Shown here one piece after another: positions 28,012 to 58,458 of a DNA stretch of 64,000 bases. Made by a program: the position numbers and the translations under genes. The number at the start of each line of letters is the position of its first letter. Position 1 is the first letter of the stretch. Below the pieces are notes generated by a model, which saw only the letters and a list, made by a program, of their open reading frames with translations, was not told the origin of the DNA and ran no database searches. The stretch is from Anaerolineaceae bacterium (GTDB lineage: Bacteria; Chloroflexota; Anaerolineae; Anaerolineales; Anaerolineaceae): NCBI GenBank assembly GCA_035342915.1, contig DAOQYB010000012.1, positions 1,479 to 65,478 of the forward strand, read 5' to 3'.

Positions 28012-29264
28012 AAATACCACAATTAAGCATCAAGACGGACGCCGCGCTGATCAACCAGGGCAAGCCAACGCGGCGCATCCTCGAGGTGGCGCTCAGCGCG
28101 CCTGAAGCCTCAGGCAACAGGGATGCCACCCCGCTCAACCTGGCGCTGGTCATCGACCGCAGCGGTTCAATGTCAGACGGAAAACTGGAACAGGTCAAGG
28201 CGGCCGTGGGTCAGATCCTCGACCTGCTGCGCCCCATCGACAGCGCGGCGATCGTTGATTATGACGACCGGGTGACCGTCACCGCGGAGAGCGGTTCGGT
28301 GACGCCGGCTTCGCGCGAAGAAATGAAGCAGGCGGTCAACCACCTGGAACCGCGCGGCATGACAGACCTGGGCGGTGGCTGGTTGCGGGGCTGCGAGTGC
28401 GCGGCGCGGCACCAAAGCCCCGGCAGGATCAGCCGCGCGCTGCTGCTTACGGACGGACTGGCCAACCGCGGCATCACTGAACCGTTAGAATTGCAGCAGC
28501 ACGCCTCGGCGTTATTCGAGCGCGGTATCACCACCTCGACCTTCGGCGTAGGAGAGGAATTCAACGAGCACCTGCTCGAAGGCATGGCCAACCACGGGGG
28601 CGGTAATTACTACTATATCGATACCCGGCAGCGCATCCCCGAGATCCTGCTGCAGGAATTCAAGGACCTGGCAGCGGTGACCCTGAAGGGGGTGACGCTG
28701 GAACTTACCTTCCCTGCCGGTAGCGCGTTTGAGCTTTTCGGCGAATGGCGCGCAGAGAAGAGCGGGAACCGTCTGCTCATCAACCTTTCGGACCTGGCGG
28801 CGGAACGCACGGTGAACCTGTTTATTGACCTGATCACTCCCCCGGGCAGCGGCGAACTCACCATCAGCGCGACCGCCAGGGGAACGGACGAGGCGGATAA
28901 ACCCTTCGCGCTGGATGGCAACATAACCCTGCGTTACGCAGAGGAAGGCGAGGTAGCGCTCGCCGAGGTAAAGCGCGACCAGGACATGATTACGCGCTAC
29001 TCGTCGGTGGTAGTGGGGCACATCTCGAACCAGGCGCTCAAACTGGAGCGGGCCGGTAAACGCGATGAAGCCGGCAAGTTGATGGACAGACTGATGCTGG
29101 AACACGGCATGAACCTGCCCGAGGTCACCCGCGCTCGTTACCAGCGCATCCGCAGTGAAGTACGTGAAGGACTGGACGAGCCGCGGCGCAAGTTCTACCA
29201 GAACGACAGCTACAACCTGAAACGCCACCGCCACGAAGAACAACAAGGCGACCACTCCAGGTAA
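28008..29264 (+). CDS. von Willebrand factor type A (vWA) domain protein
   Basis: ATGA overlap with the MerR-like gene. MIDAS LALVIDRSGSMS, T at LLLTDGLAN, and a C-terminal ~200 aa of unknown type. Confidence 0.85.
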   Translation: MKIPQLSIKTDAALINQGKPTRRILEVALSAPEASGNRDATPLNLALVIDRSGSMSDGKLEQVKAAVGQILDLLRPIDSAAIVDYDDRVTVTAESGSVTPASREEMKQAVNHLEPRGMTDLGGGWLRGCECAARHQSPGRISRALLLTDGLANRGITEPLELQQHASALFERGITTSTFGVGEEFNEHLLEGMANHGGGNYYYIDTRQRIPEILLQEFKDLAAVTLKGVTLELTFPAGSAFELFGEWRAEKSGNRLLINLSDLAAERTVNLFIDLITPPGSGELTISATARGTDEADKPFALDGNITLRYAEEGEVALAEVKRDQDMITRYSSVVVGHISNQALKLERAGKRDEAGKLMDRLMLEHGMNLPEVTRARYQRIRSEVREGLDEPRRKFYQNDSYNLKRHRHEEQQGDHSR

Positions 29265-29351
29265 TCTTAACCCGTTATAAGGACCGGCGAAGATGCGTTC
29301 AATCCCTGCCCGAACAGCGGTAGAGCTGAGCGAAGGGAAAACCGGTAAGAT

Positions 29352-29386
29352 AAAGGCCGGTGCTGCCTGCAGCACCGGCCTTTATT
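29352..29386 (+). terminator. rho-independent terminator
   Basis: AAAGGCCGGTGCT-GCCTGC-AGCACCGGCCTTT followed by ATT. Confidence 0.65.
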
Positions 29387-29437
29387 AATTGAACGATCGT
29401 TCAATTGTGATCAACAGGATATATGAACGAGCGTTCA
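29387..29437. promoter_or_regulatory. two SOS-box-like palindromes (AATTGAACGATCGTTCAATT and TGAACGAGCGTTCA)
   Basis: Perfect 20-bp palindrome at 29387-29406 and a 14-bp near-palindrome at 29424-29437. Both contain GAAC-N4-GTTC and lie 54-104 bp upstream of grpB. Confidence 0.45.
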
Positions 29438-29490
29438 ATCCACAGTTGTTAATCTATACGCATTATTGCCTTCCGGTGTATGATTGGCGC

Positions 29491-30015
29491 ATGAAAACCG
29501 TCATTCCCATCGAGGTCCTGCCCTACGACCCGGCCTGGCCGCTGCAGTACGAAGCAGCCCGTGATGCGATATTGAAGGCGATCGGAGTCTTCGTGCTGCG
29601 CATCGAGCATATCGGCAGCACGGCTGTGCCCGACCTGGCCGCCAAACCGGTGATCGATATTCTGGTCGGTGTGAACAGACTTGAGGAGGCGCCGGATTTT
29701 TTACCCCCGCTTTACCCGCTGGGTTATACCTATATCCCCGAACACGAAGACCTCTTCCCTGAACGCCGCTACCTGCACCGTATTGTCAACAACGCCCACA
29801 CCCACCACCTGCACATCGTCGAAGCGCAGAGCGAGTTCTTCAGGGTACAGCTGCTCTTCCGCGACTATCTGCGCACCCACCCTGAAGAAGCCCGGCGCTA
29901 CGCGGCGCTCAAGCAACGCCTGGCCCAGGAGTACCGGCTGGATCGCGAAGCCTACACGGACGGCAAGAGCGGGCTTATCAAGGAAATCCTTGTACAGGCT
30001 TCCCGCAGCACCTGA
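29491..30015 (+). CDS. GrpB family protein (UPF0157)
   Basis: YDPAWP..Y......I.......I.HIGSTAVP.L.AKPVIDILVGV and later HHLH motifs. Start MKTVIPIEV at 29491. Confidence 0.85.
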   Translation: MKTVIPIEVLPYDPAWPLQYEAARDAILKAIGVFVLRIEHIGSTAVPDLAAKPVIDILVGVNRLEEAPDFLPPLYPLGYTYIPEHEDLFPERRYLHRIVNNAHTHHLHIVEAQSEFFRVQLLFRDYLRTHPEEARRYAALKQRLAQEYRLDREAYTDGKSGLIKEILVQASRST

Positions 30016-30066
30016 CACTGCCCGGCAGCACAATGGTAGAATCACTGGCGTGAACAGGAGGCTGCC

Positions 30067-30444
30067 GTGGGAATAATCGAATTATTCAACAAACATCAAT
30101 ATATCAATCTCGAAACCTACCGCAAAAATGGCCAGGGGGTTCGCACACCAGTGTGGTTCGTGGTGCATGAAGGAGAACTGTGTTTTACCACCGAAGCCTC
30201 CTCGGGCAAGGTCAAACGCCTGCGCCGCAATCCGGCGGTCAAAGCCGCCCCCTGCACCGCCAGCGGCGATCTGCTGGGAGAGTGGCATACGGCGCGCGCG
30301 CGCTTCTTGAGCGCGGATGAGATCGTCGTGGTAAGGAAGGTATACGCCCGCAAATACGGGGTGATGAAGCTGCTCTTTGACCTGCTGGGGATGTTCAGAA
30401 AAAAACAGCGCCTCTACATCGCCCTGGCGCTTGATTCGGAATGA
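30067..30444 (+). CDS. PPOX class F420-dependent / pyridoxamine 5'-phosphate oxidase-like family protein
   Basis: YINLETYRKNGQGVRTPVWFVVHEGELCFTTEASSGKVKRLRRNPAV pattern. GTG start. Confidence 0.75.
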   Translation: MGIIELFNKHQYINLETYRKNGQGVRTPVWFVVHEGELCFTTEASSGKVKRLRRNPAVKAAPCTASGDLLGEWHTARARFLSADEIVVVRKVYARKYGVMKLLFDLLGMFRKKQRLYIALALDSE

Positions 30445-30481
30445 GCGCTACAGCCATCAGGTTAAAAGTGTCATCCCTGGA

Positions 30482-30705
30482 TGCAACCCCTGCCTTCCCG
30501 CCCGAATGCAATTTCCGCCTGTTCGCCTGAATGCAGATATTGCCTATTGGCAAGCGTGCAAAATCTGCCTTTTGGCGAGAAGAACAAAAATGCACGCCGG
30601 CGGGGATGAATTAACTGCATCAAGGAGGCCTGGGTGCAAGAAATGTCCTTCTACAGAGTGCAGGAAGTGCACCTCTACAGCGTGCAAAAGTTGCACGTGA
30701 TTCTA
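30482..30705. repeat. array of about nine degenerate direct repeats built on (A/G)TGCA(A/G), period 24-25 bp
   Basis: TGCA starts at 30482, 30507, 30532, 30557, 30591, 30616, 30635, 30659 and 30683, giving spacings of 25, 25, 25, 34, 25, 19, 24 and 24. The last three units are clear 24-mers: GTGCAAGAAATGTCCTTCTACAGA, GTGCAGGAAGTGCACCTCTACAGC, GTGCAAAAGTTGCACGTGATTCTA. Confidence 0.75.
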
Positions 30706-30743
30706 TTCACCACTTAATTAATACTTTAAACGACTTAAAGAGC

Positions 30744-31142
30744 TTAACCGCTTTTTTTACGGCGCTGTGGATTGATCAGATCCTCAGGAAATACCAGGTT
30801 CCAATCATAGCGCGGGCTCCTGGATGGTTGTTTGTATTTACCCGGGTCCACCTGTCCATTCTGATAGTCATTGAGAAAACGCGCCAGCGCCAGGGTTGCC
30901 AGCTGGCTGGCCGGCAGGCGCAGATCCTCTGCCAGCAGGCGGATGCCCTCGCGGATGGAAGGCGGAAGATCATAAGTGGCGCGCTGGTCGCGCCTGGATT
31001 GGATCTTGGCGCGTTCACGGGAAATACGTTCTCTTTCGCGGCGCGGGAGTTGGGACTCGGATTGTTTCTGCTGCATCCCGCGCAGCAGGTCCGCCACTGC
31101 CGGGTCGAGCGCGAAACGGCGTTGTCTTTTTTCATCAACCAT
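30744..31142 (-). CDS. ribbon-helix-helix protein, candidate centromere-binding partner of the adjacent ParA (ParG/omega-like, type Ib)
   Basis: 132 aa, 8-nt overlap with the upstream parA. ATYDLPPSIREGIRLLAEDLRLPASQLATLALARFL fits a beta-strand/helix/helix pattern. Basic N-terminal tail. Confidence 0.6.
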   Translation of the reverse strand: MVDEKRQRRFALDPAVADLLRGMQQKQSESQLPRRERERISRERAKIQSRRDQRATYDLPPSIREGIRLLAEDLRLPASQLATLALARFLNDYQNGQVDPGKYKQPSRSPRYDWNLVFPEDLINPQRRKKSG

Positions 31143-31905
31143 CGATCACCTCCAGCATGCGGCCAAGCACCTGGCGGTATCCGCCGAGGCGCTGACGGCC
31201 ATCTCTAAATCCTTCGATTGAAGTGGAATTGGGCGAATACTCCCACAATGTCTGCCCGTATGCCGCTGTTTCACGCACGCGCGTATCCTGCGGCACCGGC
31301 GGCCAGACGTTCGCGCCGAAAACGCGGGTGATCTCTTCAAACTGGATAAGCGTTTCACGCGTGGTGCGATCGAAAAAGGTCGGCAGAATACTGTAACCGC
31401 GGTAAAGGTGACCGTTGCGGCTGATCTCGGCCATGGTGGTGAGGATCTCTTTCACCCCATCCACCGCCAACGCGTCCAGCCGGGTAGGAATCACAACCCA
31501 GTCCGCGGCAATCAAGCCATTGATGTGCAGCACATCCAGCGAAGGCGCCATATCCAGCAAGACCGCGTCATAACCGGAGTTGGTGAGAATGTCACTGAGG
31601 ATGGTCTCGCGAAAATCGGCCAGGGTGATCTGGCGCTTGACCTTTTCCGTCTGCTTATCGCCGGGCACCAGGTCCAGGTTGGGGCGCAGCGGCACCACCA
31701 CCCCGGCCAGCGGTTCATCCAGGCAGATCAGGCGGTAGAGCCCCGGGGATTTTTCCAGGCCGAAGGAAAGCGCCAGGTGCCCCTGCGGATCGAGGTCGAC
31801 GAGCAGGGTGCGTTTATTAAGGCGCGCCAGACCGTCAGCGAGCGTGACCGCAGTGGTGGTCTTGCCGACACCGCCTTTCTGATTGGCAAAAGCAAAGATC
31901 ATCAA
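31135..31905 (-). CDS. parA: ParA/Soj-family partition ATPase (short form)
   Basis: Deviant Walker A FANQKGGVGKTTTAV, LLVDLDPQG, DAVLLDMAPS. Confidence 0.9.
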   Translation of the reverse strand: MMIFAFANQKGGVGKTTTAVTLADGLARLNKRTLLVDLDPQGHLALSFGLEKSPGLYRLICLDEPLAGVVVPLRPNLDLVPGDKQTEKVKRQITLADFRETILSDILTNSGYDAVLLDMAPSLDVLHINGLIAADWVVIPTRLDALAVDGVKEILTTMAEISRNGHLYRGYSILPTFFDRTTRETLIQFEEITRVFGANVWPPVPQDTRVRETAAYGQTLWEYSPNSTSIEGFRDGRQRLGGYRQVLGRMLEVIDG

Positions 31906-31967
31906 AAGAGAAAACTCCTGGCTCAGATGTTATCAGTGAACGAAGAAACCGCCCACAAATAAAAAAT

Positions 31968-32058
31968 AAGGGTCGCCCCATAAAATTATAAAGGGTCACC
32001 CCTTGAAAATCAAGGGTCGCCCCTGGAAAAGAGATGACCGCGGAAAAAGGGTCACCCC
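31968..32058. repeat. four 12-bp direct repeats AAGGGTC(G/A)CCCC (iteron/centromere-like)
   Basis: Copies at 31968-31979 (G), 31991-32002 (A), 32012-32023 (G) and 32047-32058 (A). The A-type copies are followed by TTGA and contain the palindrome GGGTCACCC. They lie 63-153 bp upstream of the parA start at 31905. Confidence 0.75.
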
Positions 32059-32151
32059 TTGATGCCCTTCAAGGCTTCCTGGAAACGGAAAATGGCGTTG
32101 AACGCGTAAAGCCCCGTGTGGCGGAAAATATGGAAAAAGGAGAAGGAAAAA

Positions 32152-32207
32152 GTGTAACCGCGGTAACACATTGACTAAAAAAAGTGTAACCATGGTTACA
32201 CTTTTTT
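32152..32207. promoter_or_regulatory. parS-like palindromes GTGTAACCGCGGTAACAC and AAAAAAGTGTAACCATGGTTACACTTTTTT
   Basis: 32152-32169 is a near-palindrome. 32184-32201 is a perfect 18-bp palindrome, extended to a perfect 30-bp palindrome (32178-32207) by A6/T6 flanks. They lie 18-73 bp downstream of the parB stop. The second could alternatively be a bidirectional terminator. Confidence 0.5.
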
Positions 32208-32224
32208 AGAACAATTAACCGGTG

Positions 32225-33370
32225 CTAACGGGTACGGTCAAGGCGCGCGCGGATCAACCTGGACAGTTCCTCGAGCAGGTTCAGGGATTGAGCTCCCAAC
32301 CCTCTCACCACCATGGTGTTGGCGATCTCATCCAGCGCCCGGTCCTGGCCAGTACGGTCAAGCTCATTGAGGGTTTGTACGAAGCGCCGCAGCGAGCGCG
32401 CGGCCTGGCGACCGGGTTCGGGGAGGATGGGCGCGGCGGGGCGCCGGGGAGGTTCTGCGCCGGCCCTGGCGGGCGCGGCGATCTCGGCGATCTCTTCGGA
32501 GGTAAGCTGATTTTGAATGCTCAACCTGACCATACGCTCCCACTGGTCACGCGGCGAAGACAGGATCTCGCGCAGGACGCGTTCCGATAGGCGGTAGCGA
32601 TCCGCCAGGTCCAGCTGGCTGGTAGGCAGCTGCAGGATGTTGAGCAGCTGCACCATGCGCGGGCGGGTGAGCTGCATCACGGGGGTGATCTTCTCCCACA
32701 AACCCGCGGGCATGCGCTGGGTGCGCGCGATGCGGAAGTAATCGTAGTCATCCGCCAGGTCCTTATCCGGGTGGATACCCATTTCAGCCAGGATGAGGGC
32801 TGCCACTTCGCAGGCCTGTTCCACCGAGGATGGGGGTTCGGCGTGACGGTTCTCCAACACCTGGCGCTGGCGGGTGGGATGTTCCACCACCTCAACGCGC
32901 AGCAGCGGTTCATCTTCGGCACCGGAAGAGGCGTACTGCAGGCAGGCCGCCCAGTAGCGACGTTCACCGGTCTCGATGATGAACACGTATTCGCCGCCGG
33001 CACCCAATGCCCACTTGCCGGTGATGGATTTTATCTGGCCGTGCTCATCGAAAGACGAGCCCATGGCGAGAAGCTTCTGCACTTCCTGTTCCATGCCGGG
33101 GTCGGTGCGAGAAAGCGCCAGCCATTCCAGCGCCGCCTGGTAGCAGTTGATGCGGCCGCCGTAGAAATCCGCGCGGATCTCGGCGGGAAGCAGGCGCCGC
33201 GGCTGAAACCGGTCGGGAAGCATCTGGCTGGGTTTAAGGCGTTCGATGCGTTCCACCGGCGCGGGCGCCGCATCCGGGGAGTTCACGCGCGCCGGGGGTT
33301 CTATCTTGGGTTTTTTTGAGCCTTTCTTATCCAGGTCTTCAAAGGCGTTAAATCTCTTTTTCGGCGGCAT
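32225..33370 (-). CDS. parB: ParB/Spo0J-family partition protein (ParB N-terminal CTP-binding domain + HTH)
   Basis: LKPSQMLPDRFQPRR (box I), FIIETGERRYWAA (GERRxRA arginine patch), HTH-like MQLTRPRMVQLLNILQLPTSQLDL, and a Pro/Arg-rich linker plus helical C-terminus. Start lies 4 nt after the parA stop. Confidence 0.85.
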   Translation of the reverse strand: MPPKKRFNAFEDLDKKGSKKPKIEPPARVNSPDAAPAPVERIERLKPSQMLPDRFQPRRLLPAEIRADFYGGRINCYQAALEWLALSRTDPGMEQEVQKLLAMGSSFDEHGQIKSITGKWALGAGGEYVFIIETGERRYWAACLQYASSGAEDEPLLRVEVVEHPTRQRQVLENRHAEPPSSVEQACEVAALILAEMGIHPDKDLADDYDYFRIARTQRMPAGLWEKITPVMQLTRPRMVQLLNILQLPTSQLDLADRYRLSERVLREILSSPRDQWERMVRLSIQNQLTSEEIAEIAAPARAGAEPPRRPAAPILPEPGRQAARSLRRFVQTLNELDRTGQDRALDEIANTMVVRGLGAQSLNLLEELSRLIRARLDRTR

Positions 33371-33374
33371 GGGC

Positions 33375-34232
33375 TTATCCTTCCCGCGCGCCTGAGCGGG
33401 CGGCGGTGCGTTTAAGGACGAGGTCGGTTAGTTCAGCGTATTCTCGCGTGGGGCGGGAACTGGATACGATATTCTGGCTGCCGGGATTGCGCGGCGGGCG
33501 GTACGTGAACACGTCCATGTGGCTGGAGTGCGCGTACGCCAGGTCGGAGGATTTGTGGATGGCCGGCAGCAGCAGCTTCTTGTAGCGTTTCTTCATTTCC
33601 TCCAGGATCTCACGGGTTTCACTGCGTTGTTCCTCGCACAGGGTGGGCAGGTAGCCGAATATATTGAGATCCGGTTTGAAATGGGTTTGCACCTGCTCGA
33701 TGGTGCGCTGCAGCTCGATGAGCCCTGAAACGCCCAGGTAGGAGGTTTCTACCGGGATGATGACGTGATCGGCAGCGACCAGCGCGTTGATCAGCAGGTC
33801 GCCGGTGGTGGGGGGCGTATCGATGATGATGTAGGCGTACTCCTGCTGTACAACTGACAGCGCGCGCTGCAGGCGGGTCTCGTTGGCCATCAATACGGGC
33901 AGTTCACGGGCGGCGCGCACCATGGCGGCGCGTTCCGACGGGACGAAGAACAGGTTAGGGTGGAAGTCGCTGCGCTGGATGAGACGTTGAATGGAGGGCG
34001 GAGGGGTTTCGGTGAGCAGCGACGCCAGCGAGACGGAGGGGGTATCCGCGTGCTTTTCAAAAGCCACCGCTAACAGCGCGTGCACCTGGGGATCCATATC
34101 CACCAGCAGTACGCGGCCGCGCTCATCCTCGCGGTCTGAAAGGCGCAGCGCCAGCCCGGCAGCCAGGTTAACCGCGGTGGTCGTCTTGCCGACACCGCCT
34201 TTTTCATTCGCGATCGTGATAGTGATGGCCAT
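33375..34232 (-). CDS. parA: ParA/Soj-family partition ATPase
   Basis: IANEKGGVGKTTTAVNLA, LLVDMDPQ, YIIIDTPP. Confidence 0.9.
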   Translation of the reverse strand: MAITITIANEKGGVGKTTTAVNLAAGLALRLSDREDERGRVLLVDMDPQVHALLAVAFEKHADTPSVSLASLLTETPPPSIQRLIQRSDFHPNLFFVPSERAAMVRAARELPVLMANETRLQRALSVVQQEYAYIIIDTPPTTGDLLINALVAADHVIIPVETSYLGVSGLIELQRTIEQVQTHFKPDLNIFGYLPTLCEEQRSETREILEEMKKRYKKLLLPAIHKSSDLAYAHSSHMDVFTYRPPRNPGSQNIVSSSRPTREYAELTDLVLKRTAARSGAREG

Positions 34233-34280
34233 TTTTCTTGCCCGTCCGTGCGGGTTAAAGCATACCCCGCAAGCAAATTA

Positions 34281-34363
34281 TACACAATTTATTTTTTTCC
34301 ATGTTAGCATAAAATAGTGTAAACTACAACTAATTGCGTTAATTATCTGCGAAATGGTGTAAA
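34281..34363. promoter_or_regulatory. GTGTA(A/T)A half-sites in the AT-rich divergent promoter region
   Basis: AATAGTGTAAACT (GTGTAAA 34317-34323) and AATGGTGTAAAAT (34357-34363) are direct and 40 bp apart. TTATACACAA (34279-34288) is the inverted copy. They share the half-site of the 32152-32207 palindromes. Confidence 0.4.
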
Positions 34364-34429
34364 ATAGCCTAAATCTCTTGATTTCAGCCCGATTTCGTGC
34401 GATAATTGTTGAGATAACGGAGGTTATCC

Positions 34430-35248
34430 ATGGGCGATGTGATGAATGATGATGAATGGCGGCAGGTACGGCTGGACCGGTTGGGGTTAAAGGAAGATCC
34501 TTTCACGCTGTCGGCCGATCCGCGCTACCTGTATCTTGGACCTGAGCACCTGGCGGTTTACCGGCAGGCGCAGGGAGTCATCTCGCGGCGGCGCGGGCTG
34601 GCGCTCATCACCGGGGATATGGGTATGGGTAAGAGTTCCCTCGCCCGGCGGCTGTACGATGTTTACGCCTCGGAGGATATGGTGGATATCTGCTATATCC
34701 ACACCGCGGCTTTCAAATCTGCCATGGACGCGGCGCGCCAGATCTCTGAAACGCTGGGCATGCCGCGGCTGCGCTCCTTCCAGCTGCAGATGGAAGCGCT
34801 GGAAAAGTTCATGGCCGGCGCCTACACCGCCAACCACAACGTGGTGGTGCTGCTGGATGACGCGCAGTTGATGGAACCCGAAGCGCTGGAGGTGCTGCAC
34901 CGCCTTTACAACTTTGATTACGACGCCAAGGTGGCGCAGGTGCTGGCCTTCGGCCAATCGGAGATGTCGGGGCTCTTCGAACTTAACAAGGCGGTGAACT
35001 CGCGCGTTTTCGTGCGCCTGGCACTGCCTCCACTGACCCTTTCCTCAGCGCTGCAGATGGTGCTCTTCCGCCTCAGCGTCGCCGGGCGTTCAACACCGCT
35101 CATCAATGATGATGCTTTCGAGGTGCTGTACGAAAAATCACAGGGCGTGCCGCGCGAGATCATCCGTTTATGCGCGCTTTCGATGGACCAATTGCTGGAA
35201 AGCGACGAATCCATGATCAATCTCGAAATCGCTCGAAAGGTGAACTGA
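34430..35248 (+). CDS. AAA+ ATPase, ExeA/AAA_22 (ORC/TniB-like) type
   Basis: GLKEDPFTLSADPRYLYLGPEHLAVY...LALITGDMGMGKSSLARRL (Walker A), VVVLLDDAQ (Walker B). GGAGG RBS. Confidence 0.8.
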   Translation: MGDVMNDDEWRQVRLDRLGLKEDPFTLSADPRYLYLGPEHLAVYRQAQGVISRRRGLALITGDMGMGKSSLARRLYDVYASEDMVDICYIHTAAFKSAMDAARQISETLGMPRLRSFQLQMEALEKFMAGAYTANHNVVVLLDDAQLMEPEALEVLHRLYNFDYDAKVAQVLAFGQSEMSGLFELNKAVNSRVFVRLALPPLTLSSALQMVLFRLSVAGRSTPLINDDAFEVLYEKSQGVPREIIRLCALSMDQLLESDESMINLEIARKVN

Positions 35249-35250
35249 TT

Positions 35251-35580
35251 ATGGCTGCCATACAGAATCCGAACCGGAATGCCTGGGTACAGCTGTACGA
35301 AGCCCGGCGCATTCCCAGCGAACCCGAGGGGCGCTCTCCGGGCCGGCCGCCGGGCATCGTGCCGCGCCGCAAGGTGGGAATGACGCTTTCTCAGGGGGAG
35401 ATCACTGAACTGGAAAACTGGCGCGAACGCCTTTCGGGGCTGCTGCGGCGCTCCGTTTCAGCCGGCGAAACCATCGGCGTACTGACACGCATCTGCACCA
35501 CGCGTTACGGGCGGCTGCAGGACCCGGAAGGGATCGAGTCCCTCGCACAACTGGTCGAAAAACTGATAGGTGAGGAATGA
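35251..35580 (+). CDS. hypothetical protein (109 aa)
   Basis: ATG 3 nt after the AAA+ stop. Basic, Pro/Arg-rich N-terminal half and helical C-terminal half. No family recognised. Confidence 0.55.
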   Translation: MAAIQNPNRNAWVQLYEARRIPSEPEGRSPGRPPGIVPRRKVGMTLSQGEITELENWRERLSGLLRRSVSAGETIGVLTRICTTRYGRLQDPEGIESLAQLVEKLIGEE

Positions 35581-35664
35581 ATAAATTCTTCCATAAACCC
35601 TCACAATTAATGGTAGAAAAAACCCTTAAGGGTTTACGAAAGTCGTACCTACAGCAAAACGGGC

Positions 35665-35693
35665 TTGATAAAATAGAATATATGTTCTATAAT
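35665..35693 (+). promoter_or_regulatory. sigma70-like promoter TTGATA-N17-TATAAT with embedded palindrome
   Basis: TTGATA (35665-35670), 17-nt spacer, TATAAT (35688-35693). The spacer/-10 region contains ATAGAATATATGTTCTAT, a 16/18 palindrome. Confidence 0.6.
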
Positions 35694-35742
35694 ATTGAAC
35701 ATGAAATTGCGCACGACGCAAAGCCGGTGATCGGATAAATAA

Positions 35743-36633
35743 ATGGATAAAGGGATCAAGGGACAGTCACTCGGGGTGGACAAGCCGGATTACCAGCAGG
35801 CCTGGGAAATAGTGCTTGGAGAGCTGCGCACTGAAATGTCGCGCGCACTTTATGAAACCTGGGTGCAGCCCTTGAAGGCGGTCGGATTCGAAAACGGGAC
35901 CTTTACCGTGGGCGCTTACAACGCTTACGGGCGCGACTGGGTGGAGGAACGCCTGGGGGCGCGCATCACCCGGCTGCTGGAAGGCATGTACGCCGAACCG
36001 GTCAAATTCAATGTGATGGTCGCGAACGGGTTCTACCGCCCGGGGGAGGGGAGCAAACCCATCAAGAAAACCATTCCGCAGAACCTGGCGCAGGATACTG
36101 CGCGTGAAACGGGTGTGAACGAAGCCGAGGAGATTGCCACATCGAAAGACGATGAGCTGGCGGGGTCGGGGCGTTCGCGCAAGGTGATGCTGCAGCGGGC
36201 TTACGGCAGTGAACGCGCCAAGCTCATCCAGCCGGAGCGCGGCATGTTCGTGACCGGTTATCTCTTCAACAACTGGCTGCCGCTGCTGGGGCATTCAGCC
36301 TTCACCATCATCATGGCGGCGCGCGCGATGTGCTACTGGAACCCGATGACCGGTGAACTGCGCAACGTGGTAGAGACGGAGATGGGCGAGCTGGCCGAAC
36401 ACGCGGCGGTTTCGGTGCGCACGGTCAAAGATGTGCTCAACGCCGAACTGGTGCAGCGTTACTTTCTGCGTTACCGTGTACGCCGCGTGATGACCCCCAA
36501 CGGCGTGCGCACCGCCGGCATCTCGATGCAGGTGCGCATGGATGACCCCCTGACCCCGCTTGACCAGGTGAAGACCGGCCTGATGGAAGAGGAGGAGTGG
36601 TACCTGCCGGAGTTTTCGGGCGAAAAGGAATAG
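35743..36633 (+). CDS. DnaA-domain-I-like N-terminus + wHTH-like C-terminus protein (candidate replication initiator/regulator)
   Basis: AWEIVLGELRTEMSRALYETWVQPLKAVGFENGTFTVGAYNAYGRDWVEERLGARITRLL follows the DnaA_N pattern (W..vl..l......f.tWi.pl......l.l.vpn.f..dW). The C-terminal segment ELAEHAAVSVRTVKDVLNAELVQRYF looks like an HTH. Confidence 0.6.
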   Translation: MDKGIKGQSLGVDKPDYQQAWEIVLGELRTEMSRALYETWVQPLKAVGFENGTFTVGAYNAYGRDWVEERLGARITRLLEGMYAEPVKFNVMVANGFYRPGEGSKPIKKTIPQNLAQDTARETGVNEAEEIATSKDDELAGSGRSRKVMLQRAYGSERAKLIQPERGMFVTGYLFNNWLPLLGHSAFTIIMAARAMCYWNPMTGELRNVVETEMGELAEHAAVSVRTVKDVLNAELVQRYFLRYRVRRVMTPNGVRTAGISMQVRMDDPLTPLDQVKTGLMEEEEWYLPEFSGEKE

Positions 36634-36664
36634 CGCAAACCTGAAGGTTTATCAAGGAACTTTT

Positions 36665-36697
36665 ACGAATGCCGCTGAACGAAAGGGCGGCATTCGT
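36665..36697 (+). terminator. hairpin downstream of the 35743 gene (weak terminator candidate)
   Basis: ACGAATGCCG-13 nt-CGGCATTCGT. No clear T-tract. Confidence 0.4.
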
Positions 36698-36821
36698 GCG
36701 ATATTCTTAGAGACAACCGTAGCTTACGCTTAAAAACATATCTCAACTGCTGCGCAGCCCCATCGATCAATCATCGCGTACGCTCTCGTGTTCTGACCCC
36801 CCGGGTTCAAAGGAGGATGCC

Positions 36822-37688
36822 ATGCTTGAAAACAATCAACCGCGTCAAACCTTGCTGTCGCGCGTCCTGCTGACGGTGTTCTTCGCCACCGCCGGGTCGT
36901 TGCTGATCGTGGTCTTTTCTCCGTGGAATCCGTTGATCCAAAACAATGTGTGGGATTATCTCGGGCGCCTGGGGGCAATGCTGTTCTTTGGCATCCTTTA
37001 TCTTATGGCGCGCAGGATCGCTTCACTTACACGCTACTCATCTGTGGTATTCGGGCTGCTGGTATTGGCGGTGGTGGTAACGTTGGACTGGGTATTCGGT
37101 CTTTTTCTGATCCAACATATTGGGCTGCGAGCCGGTTCACCAGCACAAGCGGCGCTGGCCAAATTGAACGAGGTCTTCATTGTTGCAGCGGTCATCGTTC
37201 TCTTCACACATTGTTCAGGAGCGGGATTAGGATCGATCTACATGCACAAAGGCAGGCTTAAACAGGGGTTGTTAATCGGGGGGGCCTGCTTTCTTGTATT
37301 TATGATCGCCGGCATCCCGTTGGCCACCAGTTTGTTTCAGGGGAAAGACTTGAGTATCACGCGCGCGCTTCCCTGGTTGCCGTGGCTGCTGATCTGCGTT
37401 TTTTCAAACAGCGGGTTAGAAGAGTTGATGTTCCGGGGTCTCTTCTTGCGCAAGCTTGAACCCTTCCTGGGGAAGCTGTTTTCTAACATCCTTATCGCCG
37501 TAGTCTTCACACTGATACATTATGCCGCCTCTTACACAACAGACCAGATGATGTTCATGCTGATCCTTTTCCCGTTGGCAATACTGCTGGGCTACCTGGC
37601 GCAAAAGACGGACGCGCTGTGGGCTTCCATCCTGCTGCACGCCGGTATGGACATCCCGGTATTTTTGGCGATCTTCTCGAACTTATAG
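36822..37688 (+). CDS. CPBP family intramembrane glutamic endopeptidase (CAAX protease/Abi-like)
   Basis: GLEELMFRGLF (EExxxR), FTLIHY, LLHAGMD. AGGAGG RBS. Confidence 0.85.
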   Translation: MLENNQPRQTLLSRVLLTVFFATAGSLLIVVFSPWNPLIQNNVWDYLGRLGAMLFFGILYLMARRIASLTRYSSVVFGLLVLAVVVTLDWVFGLFLIQHIGLRAGSPAQAALAKLNEVFIVAAVIVLFTHCSGAGLGSIYMHKGRLKQGLLIGGACFLVFMIAGIPLATSLFQGKDLSITRALPWLPWLLICVFSNSGLEELMFRGLFLRKLEPFLGKLFSNILIAVVFTLIHYAASYTTDQMMFMLILFPLAILLGYLAQKTDALWASILLHAGMDIPVFLAIFSNL

Positions 37689-55437: not shown

Positions 55438-55453
55438 GGTTAAGTTTAATTCG

Positions 55454-55485
55454 GGCACGGGACCGCGCGGTCCCGTGCCTTTTTT
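55454..55485 (+). terminator. rho-independent terminator
   Basis: GGCACGGGACC-GCGC-GGTCCCGTGCC followed by T6. Confidence 0.85.
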
Positions 55486-55494
55486 AATGATCCT

Positions 55495-55637
55495 GTGATT
55501 GCGAGCGGCGAGTTGTGCGCGTGGCGGAATTGCACCGCCAGTGTGAAAAGATTGGGACGGCGCGGCAATCTCATTATTATATTGAGGGTTTATTGATGAG
55601 ATTGCTTCGGTCGTGAAACCAACTCCCTCGCAATGAC
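55495..55637. repeat. MITE/REP-like element (inverted pair of GAGATTGC...CTCGCAATGAC units)
   Basis: Left unit, 55495-55572: GTGATTGCGAGCGG...CGGCAATCTC. Right unit, 55598-55637: GAGATTGCTTCGGTCGTGAAACCAACTCCCTCGCAATGAC. Terminal inverted repeats are GT(G/C)ATTGCGAG. Confidence 0.65.
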
Positions 55638-55731
55638 AACGCTGGGGAGTTATATCAGGCTAAAAAATATGCGGCGCGGCACAATACTTGCACCCATATT
55701 CCTCTGAACGCTGGGCGTGACGAGGTATATT

Positions 55732-58458
55732 ATGAGAAGCTCAATCGCAAGATCCATCATCCTGTTATCGCTGATGCTGCTGCTGGCGCTTTTCGCCGCC
55801 GGCTGCGCGGTGCTGCCCGAAGAAGGGGAGCCCGAGGAAGGGCAGCTGCCGCTGCCAAAAGCACTGTCAAGCGCTGTTGAAATCGAGCTCTCCAACCAGA
55901 TCCAGCAGGAGGCGGCGGCGCGACAGGATGTGCTGGCTTTCATCGTGTACCGCGTGTCGATCGACAGCGTGGATTTTTCAGAGGACGGCAGCCTGGCGCT
56001 GGCCTGGCTGGCGCTGGTGGATAAGGAAACGGGTTTTGTGCAACCCGCTGAACCGGGGCTGGTGATCGCGCATAAGACCGGCGATCCCGCCATGCCCTGG
56101 AGGCTGGTGTTCCAGGCAGACGCGAACTTTGCTGAAGAACTGATGGCGCTGCCGGAGGATCTGCTCTCCGCTGAAAACAGGCAGGTGTACCTGCCCGGCG
56201 TGCAGAAGGAGCAGAAAGCCGGAACGGTCTACACCGGTTACCGCCTGCCGTGGCCAAAAGGGCAGAAGGTGCGTGTGAGCGGAAGTGTCGGGCACGTGTT
56301 CACGTATAAATCCTGCCCGGCTGATTGCCTTTACGCTTTTGATTTCGCCAACGGCAGCATGTTCGATGTGGTCGCTGCGCGCCAGGGCACGGTGAAGTAC
56401 GTGGTGTGGAAGTACGAGAACGGCAATACCAAGAACGCCAATTACATCGTGCTGGAGGATACCACCACCAATCCCACCACCTACCAGGTGTACCTGCACC
56501 TGGCGCAGAACAGCATCCCCCCTGAATTACGCCAAGTCGGCGCGAGGGTGGTGCAGGGGCAATTCCTGGGCAAAGCCGATGACACCGGATACAGCACCGG
56601 TCACCACCTGCACTTCCATGTGCACACTGACCCAGATTATTACTGGGGAAAATCGGTGGATATTGTTTTTGAGGATGTGCCGATAAACGGCGGGCGTCCG
56701 CGCACCTGCGCTGAAGCCGCGGCTTTCCCGCAGTATGGCAAGGAATGCGCGCCGGGGAATTTCCTGGTTTCGAACAACGGAGATTCAGCACCGCCAACTG
56801 GCGCGATCACCAGCCCGGAAGCCGGTGCCGGCATTAACGCGCCAACACTGAACATCAGCGGATGGATGACCGACGATATCGGGGTGCTGAAGGGTCAGTT
56901 GATCTACAAGACATTCGCTTCATGGTCGCCGCTCGGACCGGAGCTGCTGGAAAGCAATTTCAATACCAGCGTTGACCTGTGCGCTTTACGCGTGCCTAAC
57001 GGAAAGTTCTCGCTCGGCCTGGTCGTTACGGATAAGGCGGGGAATATCTCGAAACCGCAGGGAGTGATGGACGTGGTGAAAAAATACGACTGCCCGCCGC
57101 TGCCGCCAGTGTGCACGCCCGCTGCTGACGAGGTGGCGTTGCATAACGACACCGAGTACCAGGGCAGCTGCCAGTTGTTGAAAATGGGCGAATACGCCGA
57201 CCTGGCCGGGCTGGAACAGGTAAAGGGCGACCAGGCGTTGTCGATTCAGGTGGGGGCGGGGGTCTCGGCGATGGTGTACGGCGAGCCCAACTTCGCCGGC
57301 ACCATGGAGCTCTTCCAGGATGGCGATGACAACCTGGCGAACAACCTTATCGGTGCGGCAAACGCTTCTTCGATCAAAATTGTTAAACGTATCGTTATGC
57401 CCACCCCGGCAACCCTCAACCTGCCGCAGATCATCACCGACGAGACTTTTCTGGCGGTGACCTGGACGGTGGAGGAGGGCACGGAATCACGCGCCCGGCT
57501 GACCGGGCCGAAAGGTTTTGTGAGGACCGTGGACTGGCAGACGACCGGTGCCTGGCAGGTAGGAATGCTGCCGGCCGGGAATTATAAGGTAAGCGTCGAA
57601 GCCCGCAACCTGCTGGGCAGCGCGACCACCACACAGCAGTTCAGCGTGGTAAAGGCGGTTGAACCCCCAAGCACGCGCATGGACGCGCTGCCGCAAACTT
57701 ACGGTTCGACCGCCATCAAGTTAGGCTGGGTGGTCGAGAGCCACGCGGATGAAGTGGAGCGTTTCGAGCTGCAGGTGCGCGAGGGACAGGGCGATTGGGT
57801 TGATTACCAGCAGGCGATCGGCAGCGCGGCACGCAGCCTGGTGTTCTGGGCGGATCAGAACCAGGTGTATGAGTTCCGCATGCGCGCGGTGAACAAGCTC
57901 GGCACGGCTGAAGCCTACCCGGATAACGCCGAGACGTTTACACTGGTGCTCTCTGACTGCCTGGGCGACGATGCCGAACGCGCCGGGGATAACCAACGCG
58001 AGCTCGCGCCGCTGGTGAGCAGCAATGCGCCGGTAAGGCACAACTGGTGCCCGGCGGGAGATGCGGACTGGGTGCGTTTTGACGCCAAAGCTGGCGACAG
58101 TTTCGTGCTGCGCGCCAACCCGCAAGGTCCGGCTTCAGGCGCAGTTGTTCAGTTGTTTGCCGCCGGCAGCGAGGTATTGCTGGGTGAAGCCCGCCCGTTC
58201 AACGTGGATGGCCGGACGACCCTCAGTTGGATGGCTCCCGCGGACGGCAGCTACGCTGTGAAGTTAAGCCCGGTTGATGCGCGCATCGCCGGCGTGGAGG
58301 CGGAGTACACCTTCAGCGTGGAGAAGAAGGGCGCTGTCAAACCCTTGTGGTTTGTGCTCTTCTCTGCCATGGTTTCAGCGCTGATGGGCGGCGGGTACGC
58401 GGCTGCCAGGCGGGTGAAGAAAACCATGAAACAGAAGAAAAGCCGCGTGGGATGGTAG
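55732..58458 (+). CDS. M23 family metallopeptidase with Ig/FN3-like and pre-peptidase C-terminal (PPC) domains, C-terminal TM anchor
   Basis: Lipobox LFAAGC. M23 motifs (YAFDFA...; TGHHLHFHV). PPC-like GDADWVRFDAKAGDSFVL...DGSYAVKL. Terminal TM helix plus a basic tail. Confidence 0.88.
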   Translation: MRSSIARSIILLSLMLLLALFAAGCAVLPEEGEPEEGQLPLPKALSSAVEIELSNQIQQEAAARQDVLAFIVYRVSIDSVDFSEDGSLALAWLALVDKETGFVQPAEPGLVIAHKTGDPAMPWRLVFQADANFAEELMALPEDLLSAENRQVYLPGVQKEQKAGTVYTGYRLPWPKGQKVRVSGSVGHVFTYKSCPADCLYAFDFANGSMFDVVAARQGTVKYVVWKYENGNTKNANYIVLEDTTTNPTTYQVYLHLAQNSIPPELRQVGARVVQGQFLGKADDTGYSTGHHLHFHVHTDPDYYWGKSVDIVFEDVPINGGRPRTCAEAAAFPQYGKECAPGNFLVSNNGDSAPPTGAITSPEAGAGINAPTLNISGWMTDDIGVLKGQLIYKTFASWSPLGPELLESNFNTSVDLCALRVPNGKFSLGLVVTDKAGNISKPQGVMDVVKKYDCPPLPPVCTPAADEVALHNDTEYQGSCQLLKMGEYADLAGLEQVKGDQALSIQVGAGVSAMVYGEPNFAGTMELFQDGDDNLANNLIGAANASSIKIVKRIVMPTPATLNLPQIITDETFLAVTWTVEEGTESRARLTGPKGFVRTVDWQTTGAWQVGMLPAGNYKVSVEARNLLGSATTTQQFSVVKAVEPPSTRMDALPQTYGSTAIKLGWVVESHADEVERFELQVREGQGDWVDYQQAIGSAARSLVFWADQNQVYEFRMRAVNKLGTAEAYPDNAETFTLVLSDCLGDDAERAGDNQRELAPLVSSNAPVRHNWCPAGDADWVRFDAKAGDSFVLRANPQGPASGAVVQLFAAGSEVLLGEARPFNVDGRTTLSWMAPADGSYAVKLSPVDARIAGVEAEYTFSVEKKGAVKPLWFVLFSAMVSALMGGGYAAARRVKKTMKQKKSRVGW

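Follow-up and report, generated by a model that had tools for sequence, protein, structure and literature searches.

Iteron origins of plasmid replication (RK2 oriV, F ori2, P1 oriR, pSC101, R6K gamma; PMC4980987) consist of tandem repeats for an initiator encoded by the replicon itself, set beside an AT-rich unwinding element with short repeats of its own; partition genes are found close by, and the location is that of a switch in strand bias. Arrays of similar appearance serve partition: the F plasmid centromere sopC, located just past the partition operon, is made of tandem repeats bearing inverted repeats, and in type Ib systems (TP228 parH; pB171 par2, parC1 and parC2) arrays of short repeats flank an operon encoding ParA and a ribbon-helix-helix (RHH) protein, on both sides in the case of pB171. 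The origin of Vibrio cholerae chromosome 2, a domesticated secondary replicon (RctB 12-mers and 39-mers, with parAB2 adjacent), combines arrays of sites for a lineage-specific initiator with partition genes and parS sites clustered beside them. In this work, we describe a tandem array of nine TGCA-containing units, resembling each of these systems in part, which spans positions 30476-30701 of a 64,000-nucleotide stretch of Anaerolineaceae DNA (hereafter, the window), in a non-coding gap next to a parA-RHH cassette. We hold with moderate confidence, from sequence comparison, that the array forms the core, acting in cis, of the origin of vegetative replication (oriV) of a 100-360-kb megaplasmid or chromid, widespread in the Anaerolineaceae, composed of iteron-like initiator sites and an unwinding element. 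An earlier, sequence-only reading of this DNA had proposed two alternatives, an iteron origin and a second centromere: the former has gained support from the GC-skew minimum and the AT-rich tract found at the array, while the latter is disfavoured by arrays which exist without the partition cassettes.

The array shares with iteron origins the presence, in a non-coding stretch, of at least three tandem phased repeats and of an adjacent AT-rich element, and departs from them in several respects. Its units are palindromic, each with two TGCA half-sites, where iteron origins have asymmetric direct repeats; they are nine, at 24-25 bp, where iteron origins have 3-7 units, each 17-22 bp long and recurring every 22 bp or so; and no DnaA boxes were found in the region. 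The candidate initiator carries no Rep_3, TrfA or RepA winged-helix signature, featuring instead a DnaA domain I and an unassigned C-terminal half, and is always accompanied by a separate AAA_22 ATPase. As in type Ib centromeres, the array is adjacent to parA-RHH; unlike them, it occurs also where the RHH protein is missing, and the arrays upstream (GGGTCRCC) and downstream (TGCA) of the cassette are unrelated in sequence, only the former co-occurring with it. Nor does it keep to replicons with a ParB-family protein, as ParB-type centromeres do, and, unlike F sopC, the array persists without either partition cassette, coincides with a skew minimum and is fused to an AT-rich tract. Initiator family, site sequence and symmetry are all unrelated to those of V. 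cholerae chromosome 2, and no second, regulatory class of sites comparable to the 39-mers was identified here. Palindromic sites for a dimeric protein can nonetheless make an origin, as in Epstein-Barr virus oriP, where tandem repeats with palindromic sites are read by a dimeric initiator: this is an analogy only, with a eukaryotic viral episome and no homology. A literature search returned nothing on plasmid origins of Anaerolineae, Leptolinea or Chloroflexota, nor on plasmid initiators with DnaA domain I.

Anatomy and conservation of the array

TGCA occurs 11 times in positions 30482-30705 (224 bp): at the nine positions already listed in the sequence-only reading, and at 30668 and 30692. 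About 0.8 occurrences would be expected from the window mean of 3.5 per kb, and the next richest 225-bp stretch of the window contains 4, in agreement with the earlier statement that the density is beyond chance. A position weight matrix, trained and refined on 42 related arrays, places nine tandem units in a single register, with starts at 30476, 30501, 30526, 30551, 30576, 30601, 30629, 30653 and 30677 and spacings of 25, 25, 25, 25, 25, 28, 24 and 24 bp. The nine phased units first described are retained, while the two odd spacings reported with them, 34 and 19 bp, vanish in this register: they had appeared (as 25+9 and 28-9) because units 5 and 6 keep the right half-site only, so that the count switched half-sites. 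The array and the tract that follows it can be divided as follows:

30476-30575, no strand: units 1-4, four 25-bp tandem units, CCTGRATGCAAnnnnTGCCTnnnnG
30576-30628, no strand: unit 5 (30576-30600), unit 6 (30601-30625) and a 3-bp spacer
30629-30701, no strand: units 7-9, at 24-bp spacing
30700-30743, no strand: AT-rich tract, candidate DNA-unwinding element, abutting the stop codon of the RHH gene

The consensus derived from 345 units, CCnGnnTGCAAanTTTGCAnnCnGG, is a 25-bp palindrome, partly degenerate in the units of the window, in which 9 bp separate the two TGCA half-sites; some units, in several genera, are perfectly palindromic over their whole length, as in CCAGAATGCAAAATTTGCATTCTGG. 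Units 1-4, kept in 11 congeners and in about 25 genera, feature an intact left half-site, TGCAA, and a partly degenerate right half. Units 5 and 6 are degenerate, their sole surviving half-site being the right TGCA (30591 and 30616), and a run of A stands in place of the left half of unit 5. A full inverted repeat, GTGCA-N5-TGCAC, is found in units 8 and 9, which accounts for the second, inverted TGCAC previously noticed in two of the late units; unit 9 (GTGCAAAAGTTGCACGTGAT) is the best conserved piece across genera. Self-identity within the array peaks at lags of 24-25 and 50 (0.34-0.38, versus about 0.24), and Tandem Repeats Finder detects just the last two 24-bp copies. The gap which hosts the array, 30445-30743, is flanked by convergent genes, a PNPOx-like open reading frame (ORF; 30067-30444, plus strand) and the RHH gene (30744-31142, minus strand), and the TGCA motif cluster is the only one in the 2.49-Mb source genome.

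An nhmmer search, with a profile built from the genus alignment, detected the array in 42 loci. Four more were found on other contigs, in genomes without an array in the stretch first examined: there TGCA-N5-TGCACGWGATTC occurs exactly once genome-wide, inside a full array. The total is thus 46 loci from about 25 Anaerolineaceae genera, with one array per genome; many of the compared genomes are fragmented assemblies, and the relatives are not independent of each other. Related arrays contain 7 to 10 units, most frequently 9, spaced by 25 (169 cases), 24 (82) or 28-29 bp (43). Near-invariant half-sites, variable spacers and these few spacings, maintained over some 25 genera, indicate that the array is conserved as a unit, rather than reflecting sequence drift. 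Within the genus, the RHH gene is present in 18 of 24 genomes, and the array follows it, with invariant half-sites, in all 11 loci examined; across 151 Anaerolineaceae genomes, full-length Rep-like genes (see below) were found in about 55 and RHH genes in 70 (E up to 1e-5). The search for the array near homologous cassettes in relatives, suggested in the sequence-only reading, accordingly found it conserved, periodicity included, and found it also where the cassette is missing.

This pattern leaves very little room for readings in which the array is not a DNA site, namely a small protein gene (a Cys-rich ORF of 107 aa with 12 Cys), a structured RNA or 3' untranslated region, or a functionless, decaying repeat; these are barely credible and already largely refuted. 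Open frames of 33-94 codons do cross many arrays, and the minus-strand transcript folds somewhat better than shuffled sequences (z = -2.7). The frame of the Cys-rich ORF, however, contains stops in 9 of the 11 congeneric sequences and variable columns are evenly spread over its codon positions (52/61/61), bearing out the earlier view of this ORF as an artefact of the repeat. An Rfam scan of 29000-37000, with E up to 1, returned only chance matches to microRNAs and small nucleolar RNAs. Conserved half-sites, variable spacers and a 24-25-bp period are the signature of protein-binding sites, and conservation over about 25 genera excludes decay.

No promoter was found by scanning, and the sole match of the terminator scan is the palindrome of unit 9 itself. 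An inverted repeat, TGCACGCCGG...CCTGGGTGCA, considered as a terminator or hairpin of the par operon, was rejected, its arms showing no covariation in congeners: in the multi-genus register one arm belongs to unit 5, as its right half, and the other to unit 7, as its left half, so that the apparent hairpin is accounted for by neighbouring palindromic units. At the position of units 5-6 the Leptolinea plasmid described below features a clean hairpin, CCCCCGG-GAAG-CCGGGGG, with a run of T after it on the sense strand of par; a par-operon terminator may therefore be embedded at this position.

Co-occurrence with the neighbouring systems

To the right of the array lie, in this order, parA-RHH, four AAGGGTCRCCCC repeats, two parS-like palindromes, the genes for a ParB-like protein and a second ParA, and a divergent rep module:

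30744-31142, minus strand: RHH-like protein P0001, 132 aa, second gene of the ParA/RHH cassette
31135-31905, minus strand: ParA-type ATPase, 256 aa (ParA256; AAA_31, CbiA), partner of the RHH protein, overlapping the RHH gene
31968-32058, no strand: four copies of AAGGGTC(G/A)CCCC, upstream of parA-RHH, candidate operator or centromere of the cassette
32152-32207, no strand: two parS-like palindromes, GTGTAACC-N2-GGTTACAC, just downstream of the ParB-like gene
32225-33370, minus strand: ParB-like protein, 381 aa, with a GERRYWAA patch
33375-34232, minus strand: second ParA, 285 aa (ParA285), completing the ParA/ParB-like block 32225-34232
34430-36633, plus strand: rep module (AAA_22 ATPase, small RHH-like protein, DnaA-domain-I protein), candidate trans-acting binders
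34430-35248, plus strand: AAA_22 ATPase of the rep module
35170-35580, plus strand: small RHH-like ORF, 136 aa, likely start M28, overlapping the AAA_22 gene by 79 nt
35743-36633, plus strand: Rep-like protein P0003, 296 aa, with DnaA domain I (DnaA_N) as the only recognised domain

Three repeat families and three protein systems, all contained within one 6-kb region of the window, were sorted by their presence or absence in related replicons. In three genomes, G075, G047 and G067, the array is intact and single-copy, while RHH, ParA256 and the GGGTCRCC cluster are all missing: the array directly follows parB, with no RHH ORF in between. The Leptolinea plasmid is reduced in the opposite sense, having the array and lacking the ParA285 and ParB-like genes as well as the parS-like palindromes. 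The rep module, on the other hand, is present in every replicon examined, at no more than about 10 kb from the array wherever the two share a contig. Persistence of the array in both kinds of reduced replicon, together with the constancy of the rep module, points to a function connected to replication, not to partition. Initiator genes located kilobases from an origin can still serve it in trans, trfA and RK2 oriV being an example.

In G075, an 81-aa ORF (L075 4315-4560; G075 C1, about 92,316-92,561) begins with a degenerate ParA Walker A sequence, KIITSANQKGGVGN, and appears to be, judging from this similarity, the remnant of a parA-RHH cassette deleted from between parB and the array.

The other two repeat families can be assigned to the partition systems. 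GGGTCRCC clusters track ParA256/RHH, being located upstream of parA in the window, at locus L033 (9990-10070, read on the minus strand), in G007, in the Leptolinea plasmid and in others; in the Leptolinea plasmid, 13 of the 31 sites fall within 189.4-195.4 kb. Some of these Leptolinea sites form GGCGACCC-N3-GGGTCGCC hairpins followed by T-runs, and could double as terminators. Palindromes of the form GT(A/T)ACC-N2-4-GGT(A/T)AC, searched on whole contigs of 110-290 kb, are found inside the module only (G007 C1, 166,495-169,355; G075 C1, 87,846 and 92,198), and GTAACC-N2-4-GGTTAC co-occurs strictly with the ParB-like gene; these palindromes are candidates for the parS sites of the ParB-like protein.

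These assignments bear directly on the possibility that the type Ib ParA/RHH cassette has in the array a second centromere, on its downstream side, comparable to parC2 of pB171, with the RHH protein coating the units and ParA moving the complex. We regard this as unlikely, although several observations speak for it. In the window, as in 11 of 11 congeners and many other genera, the array directly adjoins the stop codon of the RHH gene; inversion of the parA-RHH block in the Leptolinea plasmid carried the array along; in G086, G078 and G139 a short RHH gene is kept beside the array in the absence of ParA256; and RHH dimers of the Arc/MetJ/ParG type typically read short palindromic sites in tandem. 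Against it stand, besides the three genomes in which no RHH ORF separates parB from the array, those where the two are far apart: the array is 1.3-2.3 kb from the RHH gene in five genomes (G121, G159, G160, G184 and G088) and 9 kb from it in G178, where it lies about 0.8 kb past the 3' end of rep, and in G060, G062, G065 and G113 no par or rep gene is found within 1.5 kb of it. Moreover, the cassette has a repeat family of its own, the GGGTCRCC sites, upstream of parA, the usual place in type Ib systems, which comes and goes with the cassette, and the GC-skew switch would be left unexplained. The 132-aa RHH protein is a neighbour of the array and probably not its binder: G075, G047 and G067 have the array without it.

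A sopC-like centromere of the ParA285/ParB-like cassette, with inverted-repeat-bearing tandem repeats downstream of parB, would account both for the inverted repeats inside the units and for the position of the array in RHH-less replicons, where it directly follows parB as sopC follows sopB. Such an assignment is nevertheless highly improbable, since the complete Leptolinea plasmid has the array and no ParB-like gene, and a different sequence, the module-confined GTAACC-N2-4-GGTTAC, resembles canonical parS and accompanies the ParB-like gene strictly.

AT-rich tract and GC skew

The array is directly followed by an AT-rich tract: positions 30700-30739, next to unit 9, are 78% AT, and 30697-30743 ranks in the top 1.1% of the 47-bp stretches of the window by AT content. 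ACTTAA/ACTTTAA motifs recur within the tract at a phase of about 10-11 bp. In 39 related arrays the tract adjoins the final, best conserved unit, and the 40 bp past that unit have a mean AT content of 73% (range 65-83%).

Cumulative GC skew was computed for 12 replicons, taking the global or the +/-60-kb minimum. In 7 of the 12 the minimum falls 0.07-2.1 kb from the array; the values for all 12 are as follows:

Leptolinea plasmid: minimum at 191,076, array at 191,288-191,640, distance 0.2 kb
Window contig C12: minimum at 31,739, array at 31,955-32,222 (contig positions), distance 0.2 kb
G007 C1: minimum at 168,201, array at about 166,513-166,804, distance 1.4 kb
G102 C2: minimum at 55,976, array at 55,439-55,662, distance 0.3 kb
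G075 C1: minimum at 92,580, array at 92,649-92,897, distance 0.07 kb
G086: distance 1.8 kb
G069: distance 2.1 kb, the rising arm beginning at the array
G114: distance 5.6 kb
G139: distance 9 kb
G078: distance 12 kb, plateau
G070: distance 14 kb, plateau
G160: no V-shaped curve

The skew maximum of the circular Leptolinea plasmid lies near 79 kb, across the circle from the minimum at a distance of about 112 kb. Wherever the minimum is sharp (seven cases), 3.4-8.4 kb separate it from the rep gene, which sits on the rising arm. Long ORFs show no change of orientation at the array (Fisher p 0.1-0.6): orientation thus gives no independent support, and the skew is not an effect of the coding strand. 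On chromosomal contigs (G000 C6, G001 C1, G007 C2), dnaA is located close to the skew minimum or else along the rising arm, indicating that the usual polarity, with the minimum at the origin, holds in this lineage.

On contig C9 of G160 (110,590 bp, array at 81,319-81,552), the skew is positive almost throughout, with no more than a slight local dip where the array lies; this may be due to a rearrangement, to chimerism of the contig or to another mode of replication.

The skew data also bear on a further alternative, in which the array is a platform bound by proteins of the rep module and devoted to copy number control, pairing (handcuffing), incompatibility or partition, while initiation takes place elsewhere within a few kb. 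The rep module co-occurs with the array just as it would under the origin reading, the skew resolves positions to only about 1-3 kb, and palindromic sites suggest binding of dimers, which classical iteron plasmids use to regulate, not to initiate (PMC4980987). The fusion of the AT-rich tract to the last unit in 39 arrays, the distance of just 70-300 bp which separates the sharpest skew minima from the array, and the fact that no rival combination of repeats and AT-rich sequence was seen near rep make this alternative rather unlikely.

The proposed origin, its replicon and its significance

The window belongs to contig C12 (81.6 kb), one of the 34 contigs of the source genome, whose normal dnaA is found on another contig. 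In five congeners, similarly, dnaA and the module never share a contig, and in genomes assembled in 2-3 contigs (G185, G139, G102) the module is located on the small second contig. The only relative in PLSDB is the plasmid of Leptolinea sp. HRD-7 (AP024711.1), complete, circular and 212,187 bp long, the RHH and Rep-like proteins of which are, respectively, 64% and 53% identical to those of the window. The location of dnaA elsewhere, that of the module on small contigs and the relationship to a circular plasmid therefore argue that the window belongs to a megaplasmid or chromid, separate from the chromosome.

The GC content of C12, 58.2% versus 48-56% for most large contigs of the bin, fits either a separate replicon or a difference in binning. 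Pfam ParB_N has no match anywhere in the 93%-complete source genome, the ParB-like protein itself scoring below threshold, and this replicon carries the only two partition systems seen there; a canonical ParABS system may be missing from the chromosome. The Leptolinea plasmid also contains a complete type I-C CRISPR-Cas operon (cas3, cas5, cas8c, cas7, cas4, cas1, cas2; 204,327-212,040), 13-20 kb from the putative origin.

Among the products of the rep module, two could contact the array. The small RHH-like ORF, read from M28, conforms to the ribbon-helix-helix pattern (RRKVGMTLSQGEITELENWRERL...SAGETIGVLTRI); all replicons examined have it, conserved at 45-75% identity and flanked by the ATPase and Rep-like genes. 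For the Rep-like protein, searches of PDB, NCBIfam and PHROGs yielded nothing past DnaA domain I. Its AlphaFold2 model has a mean pLDDT (predicted local distance difference test) of 52.6, with values below 50 in the C-terminal half, where the order of elements, four helices followed by a beta-hairpin, is suggestive of a winged helix.

From the features of the array and the composition of this module, we infer a possible course of initiation. The nine palindromic units, with their TGCAA-N3-TTGCA cores, would load dimers of a DNA-binding protein encoded by the rep module, either the DnaA-domain-I protein, with its probable winged-helix C-terminal half, or the adjacent small RHH-like protein. The resulting nucleoprotein array would destabilise the adjoining tract, 73-78% AT, to which the DnaA-domain-I part, perhaps together with the AAA_22 ATPase, would recruit the host helicase; replication would then run bidirectionally.

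Several points weigh against an origin at the array. The support is wholly comparative; the units are palindromic and of a dimer type, atypical of classical iterons and typical of centromeres such as F sopC; and no DnaA box (TTATCCACA, up to one mismatch) occurs within 29000-32300. Neither the rep promoter nor the rest of the module's surroundings was found to contain a TGCA-N5-TGCA site, which deprives the proposal of a tie through Rep autoregulation, and the winged-helix half of the candidate initiator is only suggested by the order of secondary structure elements in a low-confidence model. The array of most replicons directly follows the RHH gene, and when the parA-RHH block of the Leptolinea plasmid was inverted relative to rep, the array moved with it. 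Finally, in 5 of the 12 replicons the skew minimum is 5.6-14 kb away or no V is seen, and minima are flat over 1-10 kb.

A bolder extension of this proposal, which we put forward as tentative, is that array and module represent a new class of origin and initiator, a sort of "split DnaA", in which domain I is fused to a dimeric winged-helix reader, its partners being a small RHH protein and an AAA_22 ATPase encoded separately. Assembled on the nine palindromes, which recur every 2.3 helical turns or so, these proteins might wrap the DNA helically and open the AT-rich tract, and the array might perhaps also serve as a platform for copy control or segregation of a family-wide replicon of 100-360 kb.

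Anaerolineaceae are abundant in digesters, sediments and wastewater, hard to culture and without genetic tools. If the proposal is true, a defined origin of about 270 bp and its trans-acting module would provide a starting point for shuttle vectors, and knowledge of its position would let read depth serve to estimate growth rates for these secondary replicons. The co-occurrence matrix also yields clean predictions for two unstudied partition systems. More generally, the locus would make it possible to test how an origin is recognised by a protein which keeps just the helicase-recruiting domain of DnaA and reads palindromes, an arrangement undescribed in the literature searched.

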